A program made the position numbers and the translations under genes. From IMG/VR virus record IMGVR_UViG_3300035498_000956: a DNA stretch of 64,000 bases, one strand, 5' to 3'. This document shows positions 2,594 to 34,409 of this stretch, piece after piece. The DNA comes from a virus. Lineage: Duplodnaviria > Caudoviricetes. Below the pieces are notes generated by a model. That model saw only the letters and a list, made by a program, of their open reading frames with translations. It ran no database searches and was not told the DNA's origin. Numbering within the stretch: the first letter of the stretch is position 1; every line of letters starts with the position of its first letter.

Positions 2594-3796
2594 ATGGATT
2601 TTAATCTAGACTTTTCTCTAGAAACATCTCAAGAACGTTCTCTCTATATAAAAACAATGGTGGATAAATTTCCACAACTAACTCAAAAGGAAACTGAACT
2701 TTGCGCCAACTACATCCTCTATGGTAAGGATGAGGTAACTGGTTTTAGTGAGGTTGATCTCAAACGAGTTGAAATTCAATCAAAATATAATTCCTATAGC
2801 CGCAAAACTCTAGTTTCTCTTGATGCGTTAATGGAGAATCCACTATTCAATGAGAACTCGCTTAAACCTGAACAAAAAATTTATAAAAAGGTTAAGCCTA
2901 CTATTGATAGGGATAGGGATAAGGATATTCCTGGTATTCAAGAGCTTTGGAAGATTATTGATCATCAACAAAAAATTATTGATTTTAATGATGGGAAAGA
3001 AGTTACTCTAGATGAGGGAGAAAAACTACCTCAACTCAATGAAAAAGACTTATATCAAGCTCGTCATCACTTAATTGAGATGCGCCGCCAGCAATATACG
3101 TTAAAAGATTTTGCTAAGCCTCCAATTCTTTTACAAGGAAATAAAGGAGAGTGGTATAATGATCCTGTTAATAGTCATTTGTCTTTTATGGTATTGCCTA
3201 GAGGAGTAGTAGGGGTAAAAAATGATTTGAAATTTGCTAATCCAAGATTATACCCTAGTTATGATACTTGTTTCGCGGCGAAAAAACAAGCTGATAAAGT
3301 TTTTGATTTTACAAATCCTCAACACGTTGTTCAATTGACCCTATTCTATTCGGAATTAGCCGAAATGGTTGAAAATTGTCCTGATTCACCTATTTGGAAT
3401 TTGCTTTGGACGCTTGATTTTTATTTTGAACAGTCAAATCCTTCAGAACAAGAAAAAATTATTTTTAGACTTAAGAAAGAAAGACATTCCAATAAGGAAA
3501 TTGTTGATCAAATCAAAAGAGAATTAGGTGTTACTCATCAAGAAAACTATATTTCAACCCTTTGGAGAAATAGAATTTGCGATGGTATTGTCGCCGCTGC
3601 GGAATTAAACTATGATGAATGGTTATGCAGAAACTATGATAAGGCTTGGAAAACTTGTATTGATTGCGGCGAAACCTTATTTCGTGATGAAAGGATTTTC
3701 TGTAAGAAATCAAAAGCAAAAGATGGACTTGTTAGTCGATGTAAGTGTTGTGAACGTAAACAAAGACTCTTAAAGAAAAATAAAGAGGTGAAGTAA
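2594..3796 (+). CDS. Phage protein with a possible LuxR/sigma region 4-like HTH and a C-terminal zinc finger
   Basis: GGAGGTGA RBS; SEQEKIIFRLKKERHSNKEIVDQI HTH-like segment; CxxC...CKCC near the C-terminus. Confidence 0.5.
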   Translation: MDFNLDFSLETSQERSLYIKTMVDKFPQLTQKETELCANYILYGKDEVTGFSEVDLKRVEIQSKYNSYSRKTLVSLDALMENPLFNENSLKPEQKIYKKVKPTIDRDRDKDIPGIQELWKIIDHQQKIIDFNDGKEVTLDEGEKLPQLNEKDLYQARHHLIEMRRQQYTLKDFAKPPILLQGNKGEWYNDPVNSHLSFMVLPRGVVGVKNDLKFANPRLYPSYDTCFAAKKQADKVFDFTNPQHVVQLTLFYSELAEMVENCPDSPIWNLLWTLDFYFEQSNPSEQEKIIFRLKKERHSNKEIVDQIKRELGVTHQENYISTLWRNRICDGIVAAAELNYDEWLCRNYDKAWKTCIDCGETLFRDERIFCKKSKAKDGLVSRCKCCERKQRLLKKNKEVK

Positions 3797-5235: not shown

Positions 5236-5537
5236 TAAAAAGAGTCCCCTTATATAGTGATATATAAGTAAACAGATGGTTAATTGCTGGGAAGCCCTAA
5301 AGCTTAAATGCCTTAATGGAACGAAAGTAGAAACAAGTTTTAAGATGGAATATGGTGAGAGCCTAAGTTCTAGAACAATGGGTGATCAGCAGCCGATAAG
5401 GTTCAACGACTATTAGAGTACTTCAAGCGAAGGAATAGCCATCTAACTTATTGAAGTTAAAGATATAGTCTCATCTCTTATGAAAGTAAGAGCAGTGAAT
5501 ACTGGTTTAAGAGTAGCGATCTTAAATAAAGATAATG
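5236..5537 (+). ncRNA. Group I intron terL-I1 (302 nt, no ORF)
   Basis: Core elements AATTGCTGGGAA, GATCAGCAG, GTTCAACGACTA, AAGATATAGTCT; U-G pair in P1; terminal G5537; removal restores the frame. Confidence 0.9.
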
Positions 5538-5593
5538 TTTTTTAAGAGCTTGTATGCGTTATCGTTATATAAACGTTACTGCACCAAGAGCGT
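5538..5593 (+). CDS. terL: Terminase large subunit, exon 2 (56-nt micro-exon encoding (I)FLRACMRYRYINVTAPRA(F))
   Basis: Joins exons 1 and 3 in frame and supplies the first half of the Walker A motif APRAFSKT. Confidence 0.85.
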
Positions 5594-6755
5594 TAAAATG
5601 GCGCTCATTAAAAAGCTTGAATTGCGGGGACATCCTGAGAGTTTTAATTACTAAACAATAATAGTAATGTTATTGCGGCGAGAGTAATTATCTCGGTATA
5701 GTAAAAAGATTAAAAATTGGACAATCCGCAGCTAAGACTCTTAATATATTTAAATAAGGAGAATTATATGATTAAAACAATTATGTTAAATGGAACAGAG
5801 AGCGCTTACACAATAAATGAAAATGGTGATGTGATTAATACAAAAACAAATAAGAAATTAAAAGGTAGCGTGTCTAGATCAGGCTATCATTACACAAGAT
5901 TATCGCAGGATGGAAAGAAATACCGATTTTTTACACACGTTTTAGTTGCTGAATATTTTTTAACAAAGCCTATAGGGGATAAATATGTTGTAAATCATAA
6001 AGATGGCAATAAAATGAATAATAATGTCCATAATTTAGAATATATAACTCAATCTGAAAATGTTAAACACGCACATAAATGTGGTTTAATTAAAAAACCT
6101 TCTGGTGAAAAAATAAACATAAAAGATCTCCAAAATGAAATATGGGTTTATATTGATGATTATCCAGATTATCAAGTTTCAAATTATGGCAGAGTTAAAA
6201 GTTTAAAATATAACAAAGAACGTATATTAAAACCGTCAACTGTTAATGGATATTATTTAATTACATTGTCAAAAAATAATAAGACTAAAAACTTTTTAGT
6301 TCATAGATTAGTATATTATTATTTTATTGATAAACAAATTGAAAATTTTATGATTGATCATATAGACAATAATCCTTTAAACAATTGTTATTCAAATCTT
6401 AGAAAGGTGACTGTGCAAGAAAATGTACAATATGCATTATATGAACAAGGTGCTTTCAAACATTTAAAAAATGTAATTGCTTATAAAAATGGTGAAATAA
6501 TAGGAGAGTATACTTCTTGTGCAGAAGCTGCACGAGCATTGTCTTGTGATTCTAGCGCCATTAGTAAAGTATGTAGAGGCCTCTATAAACATACACATGG
6601 GTATGTTTTTAAGTATAAAGAGTAAAGTTCAACGACTATAATCCCTAAAATCACTGGGTAGTGGGCTTAATAATAATATAGTCTTATCTTATAAGAAATT
6701 ATAAGAAGTTCATAAGAGAACTGCAATAATGTTGTGAATTATTGTGAAAATCATG
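5594..6755 (+). mobile_element. Group I intron terL-I2 carrying an HNH homing endonuclease
   Basis: P1 GAGCGU/GCGCUC; AATTGCGGGGA and AATCCGCAG before the ORF; GTTCAACGACTA and ATATAGTCT after it; terminal G6755. Confidence 0.9.
5768..6625 (+). CDS. Intron-encoded HNH homing endonuclease (two NUMOD4/HNH units plus a NUMOD1-like tail)
   Basis: VNHKDGNKMNNNVHNLE and IDHIDNNPLNNCYSNL; YQVSNYGRVKS; AAGGAG RBS places the start at 5768. Confidence 0.9.
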   Translation: MIKTIMLNGTESAYTINENGDVINTKTNKKLKGSVSRSGYHYTRLSQDGKKYRFFTHVLVAEYFLTKPIGDKYVVNHKDGNKMNNNVHNLEYITQSENVKHAHKCGLIKKPSGEKINIKDLQNEIWVYIDDYPDYQVSNYGRVKSLKYNKERILKPSTVNGYYLITLSKNNKTKNFLVHRLVYYYFIDKQIENFMIDHIDNNPLNNCYSNLRKVTVQENVQYALYEQGAFKHLKNVIAYKNGEIIGEYTSCAEAARALSCDSSAISKVCRGLYKHTHGYVFKYKE

Positions 6756-27233: not shown

Positions 27234-28133
27234 GTGGAAGAACAATATGGAATAAAGGAATTGTATGATATAACTTTACGTTTGCGCGCACCTTTAGAGA
27301 TTGCGGGTAAAAAGTATGATACGAATGAAGCGATTTTAATGCTTGATAAGGCAAATATTGCTACAGTTACTGAATCTAGGATTAACCAACAAGCGACTGG
27401 CGGCTATCATAATATTCCTTTAATTAATTGGGAGACAGATAAAGAGGTGAATTTTTCAATTACCAATGGATTGCTAAGTCCAGTAAGCTGGGCATTATTA
27501 AGTAATTCAAAGGTTAAGAGAAAAAGCGTTCAATCTGTTAATTATATTGAACCAGTACAAGCGTTATGTGATGATGACTATTGTGCTATTGATTTAAAAT
27601 ATAAGCCTAATGCGATATTGGATTTAATGGGAGTTCAGGGAAATCCTAATAATGAACCATTACCAATGGGTAGGAGACCTGAATTGATGTTGAAACCATT
27701 GCCTCCTAGCAAAGTTAAGTGGATTTTTTGCTATGATGAACGAGGAAATAAGATTAAAGATTTTGAAATATATGGGAATAGAGTTTATTTTAGAGATGAT
27801 TATTCTAAGGTTTATGTTGATTATACTTTTGATTATTATGATGGACTGGATAGTATTGAGATTGGTGATAGATTGATGAATGGGTTTTATAGTTTGACTG
27901 GAAAGTTTAGTAGTAAGGCTTATAGCGATGGTGTTGTAAGGACTGGTGTTATTACGATTCCTAAGTGTAAGATTAATAATGCGTTGAGCATGAAATTGGG
28001 AAGAGATGTTGATCATTCAGTTGTAAGTGATTTTTATATTACTGGGTATAATGATGAGGATGAGAGAAAGGATAAGAGAAAGACATTTGAGATTTGCTTT
28101 TTGGATAAGGAATTGACAGGGGAGTATTTGTAA
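27234..28133 (+). CDS. Divergent tail tube-like paralog 5
   Basis: QYGIKELYDI...ATGG..N..LINWE..KEV; C-terminal IPKCKI. Confidence 0.6.
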   Translation: MEEQYGIKELYDITLRLRAPLEIAGKKYDTNEAILMLDKANIATVTESRINQQATGGYHNIPLINWETDKEVNFSITNGLLSPVSWALLSNSKVKRKSVQSVNYIEPVQALCDDDYCAIDLKYKPNAILDLMGVQGNPNNEPLPMGRRPELMLKPLPPSKVKWIFCYDERGNKIKDFEIYGNRVYFRDDYSKVYVDYTFDYYDGLDSIEIGDRLMNGFYSLTGKFSSKAYSDGVVRTGVITIPKCKINNALSMKLGRDVDHSVVSDFYITGYNDEDERKDKRKTFEICFLDKELTGEYL

Positions 28134-30128: not shown

Positions 30129-31664
30129 ATGGCAACTACACAAACAATAGCCTTTAAAGGCACGTTCGATGCATCCGAAATAATCTCCTCTCTAAAGAAA
30201 ATCCGTTCTCAAATGGAATCTCAGGGAGCAGATACAAAACTTTTTGGAAATGTCGATACACAAATTAAAGCAATTGAAAAACAAGCTGAACAATTAGCAA
30301 AAAAAGCTAAGGAAGGTTTCAGTAATACAAAAGATATGGAGAATTATAATAAAGACGTTGCAAAACTTAATTCTCTATATGAACGTACTGCTCAAGACCT
30401 AGAAAAAATTAGTCAAAAAGTAGAATACACAGCACCAGAAGAATATATTCAAAAAGTTAAAGATGCTCAAAAAGCTTTACAAAGTTTAAAAGACGAAATT
30501 AAATCAACTCAACAACTTCAAAATCAACAGATAGTAACAAAATTTACTAGTGAAGGCGTTGGAGAAGATAGAGCAAAACAACTAGCTGAAAGTATTAGTG
30601 ACCAAGAAAAATTCAATAGTCTATTAGAAGAAGAACGTCAAACTCGTCAAGAAATCTATGACTTAGAAACAAAAGAAGCTGAAGAAGCCGCAGCAAAGAA
30701 TGCAATTGAAACTAAAACAGTTGACTTAAGCTCATCAAACTATAAAGTTAGTAAACAAAGAACTAGTACAAACCTTCCAAGTTTAACTGGTAATACAGAA
30801 GAGGGTGCACAATCTGACTGGAAGGCAAGAAAAGACAACCAACGACACGTCGATTATTCAACTTTTAATGATAGAGCAAATAGTGAAGCAACTCAACTTT
30901 ATCAACAAGCTTTATCAGATGTTACAAGTGGAGCGAAAGAAACTCAAACTGCAATTCAAGATTTGATTAATACTTTTTCTAGCTATGGCGCAATTATAGA
31001 AAATCAAGAAGAGTTTACTCAACAGTTTGTTGCAGATTTACAAGATGTACAACAAGCGGCTGAAAATGCAAGTACGAATGTTGAACACACTTTTGATACT
31101 TCAACAAGTGCAAATGGTATTAATTATGCCGCTGAAGGATCGACTGAAGCTGCTGACCTTGAAACGTATAGACAACAAGAAGCAGCACTTGCCACTGTTA
31201 ATCAAAGATTGAGTGAACAAGCAGCTGCAGAAGCAAATGTACAGGCGGCAGAACAAGCAAGAGATCAAGCAGCGTCTGAAGCTAATGAGACAATAACGAC
31301 TGGATTAGAGAATGGCGTTACAAGTATGAATGAGTATACCACAGCTGTTCAAAAATCTGTTGAGCAACAAAAAGAGGAATCTGCAGCTCAAGAAAAAATT
31401 AATGCCGCTTTTGATAATTTAAAAAATAGAGTTACTCAAATCTTGTCCATTGGTAACGCTTGGAATCAAGTTAAACAACAAATTCAAGCAACGACTCAAG
31501 ACTTAGCAGAATTGGATGCTAGTTTTGCTTCTATAGCAATGGTTACTGATTATGATGTTAGCGATATGTGGAGTAGCTATGGTGACTATGCTGCAATGGC
31601 TAATGAACTTGGTCAATCTACTAAAGACGTAATAGCATCGAGTGCACTTTTCTACCAACAAGGG
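30129..31664 (+). CDS. Tape measure protein, exon 1 of 4 (spliced: 30129-31664 + 32909-33192 + 33479-33508 + 34410-40818, 2752 aa)
   Basis: Ala/Gln/Glu coiled coil leading into a TP901-type TMP core ending LFYQQG. Confidence 0.85.
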
Positions 31665-31691
31665 AAACCTAGATTATAAAAATGGATAGTA

Positions 31692-31720
31692 TTGACTATT
31701 TTTGTATCCTATGATATAAT
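31692..31720 (+). promoter_or_regulatory. Intron-internal sigmaA promoter for the HNH gene
   Basis: TTGACT, 17 bp, TG-a-TATAAT. Confidence 0.8.
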
Positions 31721-31784
31721 ATATACATACTAAGAAAGAGATCTTAGTATAAAATATAAAATAATATATCGGAGGAATTAAATT

Positions 31785-32588
31785 ATGAGTGAAACAAAAA
31801 GAATTATGATTGATGGACAGGAAACAGACTATACAATTAATACAGAAGGCATAGTTATAAATCTTAAAACCAAGAGAGAATTAAAAGGAACTCTAGCGAG
31901 AAATGAATATCGTAATGTACAACTTACTATTAATGGTAAAGCAAAAAGCGTGATGGTACATCGTTTAGTAGCAGAAACTTTCATACCAAATCCTAATAAT
32001 TATTCAATGGTAAGCCATATTGATGGTAATAAGTATAATAATAATGTTGATAATCTTCAATGGTGTGAAGAACCAATAAAAAAGAATAAAATTAATGCAG
32101 TGACTAAAGTTAGTGTTGATAATGTAGAATGGAGACCTCTTAAAGGATTTGAAGGTATATATGAAATTTCTAATAATGGTGTTATAAAAAATTGTGTAAC
32201 TAAAAAATTATCTTATGGCACAAAGCGTAATGGATATGTCCGTTTTAATTTACAAGACAAAATGTTTTCTGCACATAGATTAGTTTGGGAAACTTTTAAA
32301 GGTGAAATTCCTAAAGATTATGTAATTGATCATATAGATGGTAATCGTTCAAATAATGATTTGAGCAATTTAAGATGTATTACTAATTCAGAAAATATGA
32401 TAAATGCTCAAAAGAATGGTCATAAAGGTCAGCATAAAGTTGCTCAATATGACAAAAACCATAATTTAATAAAAGAATGGCCAAGTTTTACTACCGCCGC
32501 AAAAGAATATGGTGTCACTTATGCTGCTATTAGTAGTGCAGCTAAGCGACATGGAATGAGTTGCGGATTTTATTGGGAAGAAATATAA
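31785..32588 (+). CDS. Intron-encoded HNH homing endonuclease (tandem NUMOD4/HNH)
   Basis: VHRLVAETF...SHIDGNKYNNNVDNL and IDHIDGNRSNNDLSNL; GGAGG RBS. Confidence 0.9.
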   Translation: MSETKRIMIDGQETDYTINTEGIVINLKTKRELKGTLARNEYRNVQLTINGKAKSVMVHRLVAETFIPNPNNYSMVSHIDGNKYNNNVDNLQWCEEPIKKNKINAVTKVSVDNVEWRPLKGFEGIYEISNNGVIKNCVTKKLSYGTKRNGYVRFNLQDKMFSAHRLVWETFKGEIPKDYVIDHIDGNRSNNDLSNLRCITNSENMINAQKNGHKGQHKVAQYDKNHNLIKEWPSFTTAAKEYGVTYAAISSAAKRHGMSCGFYWEEI

Positions 32589-32908
32589 TTCTTCCCTACC
32601 AACCCTTGAAAATCATTGGATTGCTGGAAGGTCCTTAAATCTTTATTACCAAACGAAATTAGTAATAATTTCGCGGCTGATTGTAGATAAGGTATGGTGA
32701 TAATATAAAGATTTGGAAAATCAGCAGCTAAGTTTCCTATTGATTTTAGGAAAAAAGTTCAACGACTAACAGTCGGTCAAGGACTGTGTAGGATCAAGTG
32801 ATCCGAAGTAGTGATACCTTTATGGTTTGATATAGTCTCAACTTCTATAGAGATATAGAGTAGTATAAACTAGTTTAAAAAGTAACGTTTTTAAAAATAA
32901 GAAAATTG

Positions 32909-33192
32909 TTGGATACAAATGAAGCGTTAAGTTTGACAACCAATACCATGAAATTGGCTACTTTATCTGGTAGTGATTTTAGTACAGCAACAGAACAAAT
33001 GACAGCGGCACTTCGTGGATTTAATATGGAAATGGATGAAGGCTCAAGAGTAACAGACGTTTATTCATCTCTAGCTGCAAGCGCAGCGGCAGACGTTGAT
33101 GGTATAGCATACGCTATGAGTAAAACAGCGTCAATTGCTGCGAATGCAGGTATGGACTTTGAAACTACGTCTGCTTTTATTACTCAAATGAT
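32909..33192 (+). CDS. Tape measure protein, exon 2
   Basis: LDTNEAL...MTAALRGFNME...AMSKTASIA...TQM-AT, TP901-type core. Confidence 0.85.
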
Positions 33193-33478
33193 TAACGTGA
33201 CTTAAGTCACAAAAGTCCCTTATAATAGTAATATTATATTGAACCGTGAATATGCGGGAAAGCCCTTAGAGCTTTACTTACTAAGTATTTTATAATATGG
33301 TGAGAGTAATGACCTCAGTATAGTAACAATAGTAAAGATTGGGTAATCCGCAGGGATTGGAATATTTAATTTCAAGCCCTCAACGACTACCAAGCGGTAT
33401 CCAAGTAATAATGGATAATGGTATAGTCTACTCCGACCTTATAGGTGTTAAAGTATCTTGAAAAAGACGGTAGAAAGG
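33193..33478 (+). ncRNA. Group I intron TMP-I2 (286 nt, no ORF)
   Basis: AATATGCGGGAA, AATCCGCAG, CTCAACGACTA, GGTATAGTCT; 5' exon ends in U; terminal G33478; restores MIETTQE. P1 is short, so the 5' boundary is less certain. Confidence 0.8.
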
Positions 33479-33508: not shown

Positions 33509-34409
33509 CAAGTACGGTGTCCTTGCAGCATAATACATAAACTGCATTGAATAACTCTTTCTAATTGACTTGGACATCCAGCAGTGGATAACAGGGCGGA
33601 AGCTCATCGAGATTGCTCGAATAAGCACCGTGAACGACTGAGTGAAAGAGGCCCATGTCAATGGGCGTGCGACAGTCTCAACTTTAGTATAACAAAAAGA
33701 AGCTAAAGGCACTATATGTGCAGAATTATAAATTTAATAAGTTTAATATTTAAAGGAGAATTAAATATGATTTATGAACGCAATTCAAATGTTTTTGAGA
33801 AGATTGATTCAGAAGAAAAAGCTTATTGGCTAGGTTTTTTATACGCTGACGGATATGTTGATCCAGAACGAGGTGAATTAATTCTAGGATTGGCAGACAA
33901 AGATAAAGAACATATAGTAAAATTTCAAAACTTTTTAGAAACAAATGCACCATATAAAGATAAAATTAATAATCAAAATAAACCTTATCGTTTTTTTAGG
34001 TTATATGATCAAAAAATCTGTTTAGATTTAGAAAAACAAGGTTTATACAGAAAAAAATCGTTAACTTTAACACCTCAAATGCAAATGTCAAATGAGTTAT
34101 TAATTCATTGGAGCAGAGGATTATTTGATGGCGATGGTAGTATTTATCCACAAAAAAATAGTGTTAATTCAATTAGATATCGAATTAATTTGGTTGGAAC
34201 AGAAGATATATTAAATTATGTAATGAATTTATGGCAAATTAATAAGAAATTAGATAGAAATAGAAGTGTTCCAAAATTTGTAGTAAGTGGAAAACGAGAA
34301 GTAAATAAAATTTTACATATGTTATATGATGATGCTTCTATCTATTTAGATAGAAAATATCAATTGGCGAAAAAAGCTATAGAGCAAAATTTATAATTTG
34401 AAGATATTG
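33509..34409 (+). mobile_element. Group I intron TMP-I3 with a LAGLIDADG gene in its 3' (P9) region
   Basis: P1 ACAU/GUGU; P3 CTCTTTC/GAAAGAG; P7 GACTG/CAGTC; terminal G34409. Confidence 0.85.
33767..34396 (+). CDS. Intron-encoded LAGLIDADG homing endonuclease (two motifs)
   Basis: YWLGFLYADG and WSRGLFDGDG; AAGGAG RBS gives start 33767. Confidence 0.9.
   Translation: MIYERNSNVFEKIDSEEKAYWLGFLYADGYVDPERGELILGLADKDKEHIVKFQNFLETNAPYKDKINNQNKPYRFFRLYDQKICLDLEKQGLYRKKSLTLTPQMQMSNELLIHWSRGLFDGDGSIYPQKNSVNSIRYRINLVGTEDILNYVMNLWQINKKLDRNRSVPKFVVSGKREVNKILHMLYDDASIYLDRKYQLAKKAIEQNL

Follow-up and report, generated by a model that had tools for sequence, protein, structure and literature searches.

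Among thousands of group I introns the last base of the 5' exon (position -1) is nearly without exception U, with C as a rare alternative (Tourasse et al., 2014, PMC4227781), and U.G pairing of the 5' splice site is best regarded as near-universal rather than strictly defining for these introns (PMC4227781). Group B IStrons, which carry IA2 ribozymes, insert after AGGG, TGGG or GAGG and splice after G; reverse transcription PCR and sequencing proved this for BcISt1, from Bacillus cereus ATCC 10987 (PMC4227781). The intron described here lies in a 64,000 nt stretch of viral DNA (Caudoviricetes; IMG/VR record IMGVR_UViG_3300035498_000956), hereafter called the window, where it interrupts the gene for a TP901-type tape measure protein (TMP). 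It occupies 31665-32908 on the plus strand, which is also the strand of its parts and of the flanking exons, and is a 1244 nt group I intron of IA2-like type without P2 and with an endonuclease gene in the loop of P1. An original prediction, made from the sequence alone, proposed that a G-C pair replaces the U.G wobble at its 5' splice site and took the known exceptions to U to involve C. That view proved too narrow, as group B IStrons have published 5' exons ending in G (PMC4227781), and the window intron is not the first with G at -1, BcISt1 being a published and tested precedent. The reading favoured here, to which we give a probability of roughly 75%, is of a mobile IA2-type group I intron with an HNH endonuclease in its P1 loop, residing in an essential TMP gene and most likely self-splicing by the normal guanosine pathway, with a 5' site in a fully Watson-Crick P1 that has G(-1)-C and no U.G at or beside the cut.

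The TMP gene was recognised by TIGR01760/PF10145 matches on its exons (exon 2, PF10145 8e-17 and TIGR01760 2e-9; exon 4, TIGR01760 6e-13) and is interrupted by three insertions. Its first exon (30129-31664) is an open reading frame (ORF) ending in ..FYQQG, with an in-frame stop five codons into the intron. Exon 2 (32909-33192) opens with the four bases UUGG that form P10, in agreement with homologs, and the PF10145 alignment on this exon begins exactly at the L codon at position 32909. The 5' flank reads CAACAAGGG|AAACC, with G31664 as last exon base, and the 3' flank AAAATTG|TTGGAT, with G32908 as last intron base. Related phage contigs (designated by L numbers) were retrieved by a search with the exon 2 peptide of TMP; a near-identity search of GenBank phages gave no match. 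In 43 distinct intron-less TMP alleles the junction is (F/Y)(Y/V/I)QQG|L without a gap, the residue after L being D, N or K, and the TMP of TP901-1 is likewise gap-free over QQG|L. Because intron-less relatives read through QQG|L uninterrupted, the intron was placed at 31665-32908. When it is excised together with 33193-33478 and 33509-34409, the resulting protein is in perfect register with those of L022 and L033 (..AFITQMIETTQEAPENIGTAMKTIIARF..), and after removal of the three introns the reading frame is 2752 aa long and otherwise intact. Junctions ending in U, such as a cut after U31670 that would give QQGKP, were excluded because QQG|L is free of insertions in every homolog. A QQG-L mRNA can be obtained by two cuts only, 31664|32909 with an intron ending in G or 31663|32908 with an intron ending in U, and the last exon base is G under either solution. 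The former is preferred because the terminal ..UUG| of the intron is kept in all six introns found at this site.

The internal guide, CCAACCCTTG (32599-32608), exactly matches the reverse complement of CAAGGG plus TTGG and occurs a single time on the two strands of the window, with 0.04 occurrences expected from shuffles. Within it CCAA (32599-32602) forms the 4 bp P10, and CCCUUG (32603-32608) forms with CAAGGG, the final six bases of exon 1 (31659-31664), a P1 of 6 bp that is fully Watson-Crick and in which C32603 faces G31664. The 10 bp match is perfect, and the nearest-neighbour duplex energy of P1 is -7.6 kcal/mol as against -4.4 kcal/mol in L031, a phage contig with an intron at the same site. 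The guide sits 3 nt (AAA) 5' of P3, where the 3' strand of P1 belongs; the corresponding layouts are GCUCUA-AAA-P3 in L031, GCUCUG-AA-P3 in L020 and GCGAAU-GUAAAA-P3 in the intron of phage KP2025. P1 is thereby a long-range helix, and the loop of 938 nt that it closes holds a promoter-like element, a ribosome-binding site and the endonuclease gene. Two parts of the original prediction are sustained by these data: the junction CAAGGG|TTGG with a G-ending 5' exon, by the flanks and the gap-free QQG|L homologs, and a guide just 5' of the core that supplies P1 and P10 and sets C opposite the last exon G, by the uniqueness of the 10-mer and by covariation of P1.

This covariation is seen in five further introns that lie at exactly the same TMP codon junction, QQG|L, in metagenomic phages. 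A U.G pair occupies -1 in L031 (5' exon UAGGGU|, guide GCUCUA) and in L096 (CAGGGU|, GGCCCUACUG), a C.A pair in L078 (UAGGGC|, GACCCUACUG) and L080 (CAAGGC|, GACCCUGUUGG), and a C-G pair in L020 (CAGGGC|, GCUCUG); the window (CAAGGG|, CCCUUG) has G-C and is alone among the six in combining a purine at -1 with a guide C. Taking the window, L031 and L020 in that order, the P1 pairs are C-G, U-A and C-G at -6, A-U, G-C and G-C at -4, G-C, G.U and G.U at -3, and G-C, U.G and C-G at -1. Because positions -6, -4 and -1 change jointly on both strands, the P1 pairing is real and the G-C pair a compensated double change. The same double changes show that the variable first guide position is faced by the last base of the exon and not by the terminal intron G, which is invariant across the same-site introns. 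This bears on a very unlikely alternative, in which the chemical cuts are shifted to follow G31663 and U32907, or in which a different guide takes over, such as UUUUUGU (about 31699-31705), whose possible pairing with ACAAGGG would include three G.U pairs. A one-base shift would yield an identical mRNA, shifted cuts are documented in group B IStrons, and the TMP intron at site 387 of L078 cannot combine U at -1 with a terminal G. The shift would nevertheless leave G at -1 while replacing the conserved terminal G by U, and in L020 the variable guide position lies opposite the 5'-flank base, as C facing G, and not opposite the 3' G, which is invariant. As for the other guide, UUUUUGU falls within a promoter-like element that is distant from P3, and neither L020 nor L031 has an equivalent of it.

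The glycine codon at the junction provides a further line of evidence. In the 43 intron-less alleles it is GGT (23), GGC (18) or GGA (2), and GGG is found in none of them. With GGG missing from this set, the exon G is not seen without the guide C, and such co-occurrence is the outcome expected of selection for pairing, not of a sequencing error or of an inherited GGG allele. An artefact of sequencing or assembly has the lowest probability of the explanations considered and is highly improbable: single-base errors occur, but here two bases 939 nt apart would need mutually complementary errors, and the remainder of the TMP gene is in frame. The original prediction had judged such an error unlikely and had proposed a search for covariation in homologous introns; the first point is borne out by the distant exon/guide complementarity, the intact frame and the covariation, and the proposed search, run on the five same-site introns, returned joint changes at -6, -4 and -1. 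Sequence and covariation confirm the observation, and on this footing the G-C splice-site pair is a real, rare natural variant. As a separate observation, the introns at L078:2930-3240, L080:2720-3030 and L096:790-1930 are close relatives that differ in having U.G (L096) or C.A (L078 and L080) at the 5' splice site, a natural swap of two look-alike wobble pairs. The exon of L080 has CAA with a guide tuned to CAG, which leaves an A.C mismatch at -4.

The catalytic core was detected by an Rfam scan of a 371 nt piece (32560-32930), which gave a match to RF00028 of 54.7 bits (gathering score 50) at 32571-32860. Scans of the whole window at the gathering threshold, and of 20 kb at E<=10, detected no intron; that the match appears only in the short piece is a filter effect, and group I introns with large loop insertions are easily missed by routine Rfam scans of 20-64 kb. 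The architecture was settled by three phage introns from GenBank whose 3' halves are similar, those of KP2025 (L017), cr131_1 (L016) and phiKp_21 (L015). P3 is formed by AUCAUUG (32612-32618) with UAGUGAU (32809-32815) and covaries in relatives, its counterparts being CAUUUUG/UAGAAUG in L031, CACUCCU/GGGAGUG in L020 and CUUAUUG/CAGUAAG in L017. Two other candidates for P3 were rejected: CCUUGA (32604-32609) with UCAAGG (32778-32783), from an energy-minimised fold, is contradicted by homologs that place UCAAGG in the loop of P7.1, and AAAUCAU/AUGGUUU, picked by a script, leaves no space for P8 and is misaligned with L031. With UCAAGG in the P7.1 loop, the guide CCCUUG (32603-32608) is free.

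P4, placed by the Rfam alignment and the fold, pairs UGCUGG (32622-32627) with UCAGCA (32721-32726) and encloses J4/5 (AAGG) and P5. The P5 extension of about 75 nt (32632-32716) resembles P5abc in having a three-way junction and an A-rich bulge, and is missing from L031, the closest same-site relative. From 32763 to 32837 follow the P7 5' strand CGACUA, P7.1 (ACAGUC/GACUGU), P7.2 (GGAUC/GAUCC), GAAG, the P3 3' strand, P8 (ACC/GGU), J8/7 (UUGAUA) and the P7 3' strand UAGUC (32833-32837), an order that corresponds to the IA2 layout. P7.1 also covaries, with ACCG/CGGU in L016, UCCC/GGGA in L017 and UCCGU/ACGGA in L020, and P3, P7.1 and P8 are all backed by compensatory changes in relatives. The P9 region and the terminal omega G32908 (32838-32908) rest on the fold and on the ..UUG| end of the six same-site introns. 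P7.1 and P7.2 between P7 and the P3 3' strand place the intron in subgroup IA2, with the order found in L016, L017 and L031. The intron thus has the catalytic core, the terminal omega G and the P1 with guide and P10 of a group I intron; the feature of this class that it lacks is the U.G at the 5' splice site, G31664 being paired with C32603 and no U.G occurring anywhere in P1.

A route to this state can be proposed. A U.G ancestor of the L031 type would have passed to G-C by two changes, a synonymous GGU to GGG in the exon and a G to C at the first guide position. Splicing, presumably efficient, would then be initiated by guanosine and proceed in two steps after G31664. What defines the cut site is probably where the P1 helix ends, with A+1 facing A32602, together with a fixed distance from P3 (the 3 nt AAA joiner, with no P2), instead of wobble geometry. 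The adenine pair of J4/5 is kept (AAGG in the window, AA or AACG in relatives), and neither J4/5 nor J8/7 shows an obvious change that would compensate. Compensation and conservation together suggest that splice-site recognition is altered and that the intron is active.

Several points weigh against this. In the Tetrahymena ribozyme, a Watson-Crick pair in place of the wobble reduces docking about 100-fold, such replacements dock poorly at neutral pH, and the exocyclic amine of the guide G is worth at least 2 kcal/mol (PMC13692252); in the window the guide has C, and the guide G is therefore gone together with its amine. The G-C pair is present in one sequence only, and a crippled allele in an assembly is possible. 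Furthermore, the P7.1 loop (GGUCAAGG) can form 6 bp with the guide (UCAAGG/CCUUGA; 32775-32783 against 32604-32609), a pairing that could compete with P1 or sequester the guide. It may also be fortuitous, with a likelihood of about 8% (a 6-mer in 320 nt); the loop motif GUCAAG is kept in L020, L078, L080 and L096.

A rival explanation is an impaired or dead intron, the G-C pair being in that case recent and mildly or strongly harmful, in a genome that is defective, tolerant of low TMP output or dependent on a protein helper. The Tetrahymena biochemistry, by which the wobble is needed for efficient docking and for the chemistry of the first step (PMC13692252), lends weight to this explanation, as do the presence of G-C in one of the six same-site introns and the existence within the family of an uncompensated mismatch, the A.C of L080. 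However, the passage from U.G to G-C takes two independent changes through mismatch intermediates, and a perfect pair is unlikely to arise by drift alone. The whole 10 bp P1/P10 match is perfect, and the 2752 aa frame is intact, as are the core, both other TMP introns and the gene for the endonuclease. Impaired splicing is accordingly considered unlikely, though of the rival explanations it is the one with most weight.

A broader proposal is that the core of this intron lineage is independent of the wobble geometry and of the guide G amine, accepts U.G, C.A, C-G and the purine-containing G(-1)-C, and cuts by helix end and distance. We put this forward tentatively, with less than even confidence. 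Dependence on U at -1 is named as a key constraint for programmable trans-splicing ribozymes (PMC13692252), and a core of this kind would offer nature's own template for versions without it. The most useful product of the analysis is the natural four-state allelic series itself (U.G, C.A, C-G and G-C at one site in homologous ribozymes): pair swaps in one small core would separate what is universal in the wobble requirement from what is specific to Tetrahymena. The series also shows a mobile intron tracking the synonymous drift of a host codon, the third position of the glycine and the first guide base having changed together.

The endonuclease gene in the P1 loop (31785-32588) encodes a full-length protein of 267 aa with Pfam matches to HNH_3 (9e-29) and NUMOD4 (7e-14), and was identified as a homing endonuclease gene. 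Homologous ORFs lie in the same loop of L020 and L096, and in L031 a decayed remnant is left; a protein search with the endonuclease returned distant relatives only and was not used. A promoter-like TTGACT-17-TATAAT (31692-31720), read from the sequence, lies inside the P1 loop and is followed by the ribosome-binding site GGAGG (31771-31775). At the equivalent place TTGACA...TATAAT is found in L020 (1861-1889) and L096 (about 826-855), and the endonuclease gene thus seems to have its own conserved sigma-70-like promoter inside the intron in three of the same-site introns. An 8 bp hairpin, GGGAAGAA/UUCUUCCC (32575-32596), overlaps the endonuclease stop codon directly 5' of the guide.

Other introns are present in the window. 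The large terminase gene (terL) contains two group I introns, at 5240-5540 and 5595-6730, both with a normal U.G (GGAU|U with AGUCC, and GAGCGU| with GCGCUC). The second of these carries a paralogous HNH endonuclease gene in the loop of P6 and not of P1. It had been claimed that the other five introns of the window all have U at -1; this holds for four, the two terL introns and the second and third introns of TMP (AUGAU| and AACAU|), and the remaining, sixth intron was not located in the window. Candidates for it at 27299 and at 840-1560 are not introns. Across the phage group (loci L021-L097) TMP genes have introns at about nine sites, some of them flanking micro-exons; in reference residues these are 200/201, 234/235, 257/259, 276, 295/296, 303-305, 312/313, 381/382 and 387-398. 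An automated junction survey found mostly U at -1 in the other TMP introns, with ambiguous results for site 391 of L028, site 302 of L040 and site 387 of L078. In the last of these (L078:3940-5345) U at -1 and a terminal G are mutually exclusive: a U.G in P1 at GCU|AG needs an intron ending in A, and otherwise the cut follows G and the terminal G is retained, the mRNA being identical.

At 4 nt upstream of the TMP site occupied by the window intron, the contig L098, which was binned to a metagenome-assembled genome of Gastranaerophilales, has an ORF-less insertion of about 700 nt (2790-3497) that is group II intron-like. It starts with GUAUG, contains a domain-V-like hairpin (CCGUAUGACGGGAAACUGUCACGUACGG) and ends in ..CUAU; the first 1980 nt of this contig are GC-rich and unrelated, and it may be chimeric. 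In-frame TAG codons occur where other phages have glutamine (e.g. FYQ*G) in the TMP of L002, L003, L018, L026-L029, L031, L054, L057-L067 and L098, and because of their position these relatives seem to read TAG as glutamine. In the window phage TAG is not read in this way.

Among the closest systems are the same-site TMP introns, which have in common with the window intron the insertion point QQG|L, the core and a P1 loop that holds an endonuclease or what remains of one, and in L031 and L020 also the guide-AA(A)-P3 layout. The DNA polymerase intron of the Klebsiella phage KP2025 and the capsid intron of the crAss-like phage cr131_1 have the same block of P7, P7.1, P7.2, P3 3' strand and P8, including GUAGGAUCAAGUGAUCCGAAG, and the KP2025 intron likewise has no P2, but its splice site is a normal U.G (AUUCGU|/GCGAAU). 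Group B IStrons resemble the window intron in being of IA2 type with P7.1 and P7.2 and in having a 5' exon whose last base is G, following a GG-ending site (AGGG|). They differ in that U is their first intron base and a U.G lies one position beyond the cut, whereas the window intron starts with AAACC, its A+1 faces A32602 and P1 contains no U.G; the exon G is there without the first intron U of the shifted pair. Their cargo, too, is different: genes of IS200/IS605 or IS607 type lie towards the 3' end, downstream of P9.2 and with an AU-rich inverted repeat, whereas the sole ORF of the window intron is the HNH/NUMOD4 gene in the P1 loop and its 3' tail of 71 nt has no ORF. In the accessible literature no natural counterpart was found that pairs G(-1) with C and lacks an adjacent wobble. 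Hur and Waring (1995) reportedly described a natural intron in which a Watson-Crick C-G replaces U.G at the cut site. That kind corresponds to L020, with a pyrimidine C in the exon and a guide that retains G; in the window, by contrast, a purine in the exon faces C in the guide, and the minor-groove amine of the guide G is lost. The title of that work raises coding-level selection for C, whereas the codon position at -1 in the window is synonymous. The -1/guide mutants of the Tetrahymena ribozyme engineered by Barfod and Cech (1989) reportedly concern the base pair at this same position. Those are laboratory mutants of an IC1 intron.

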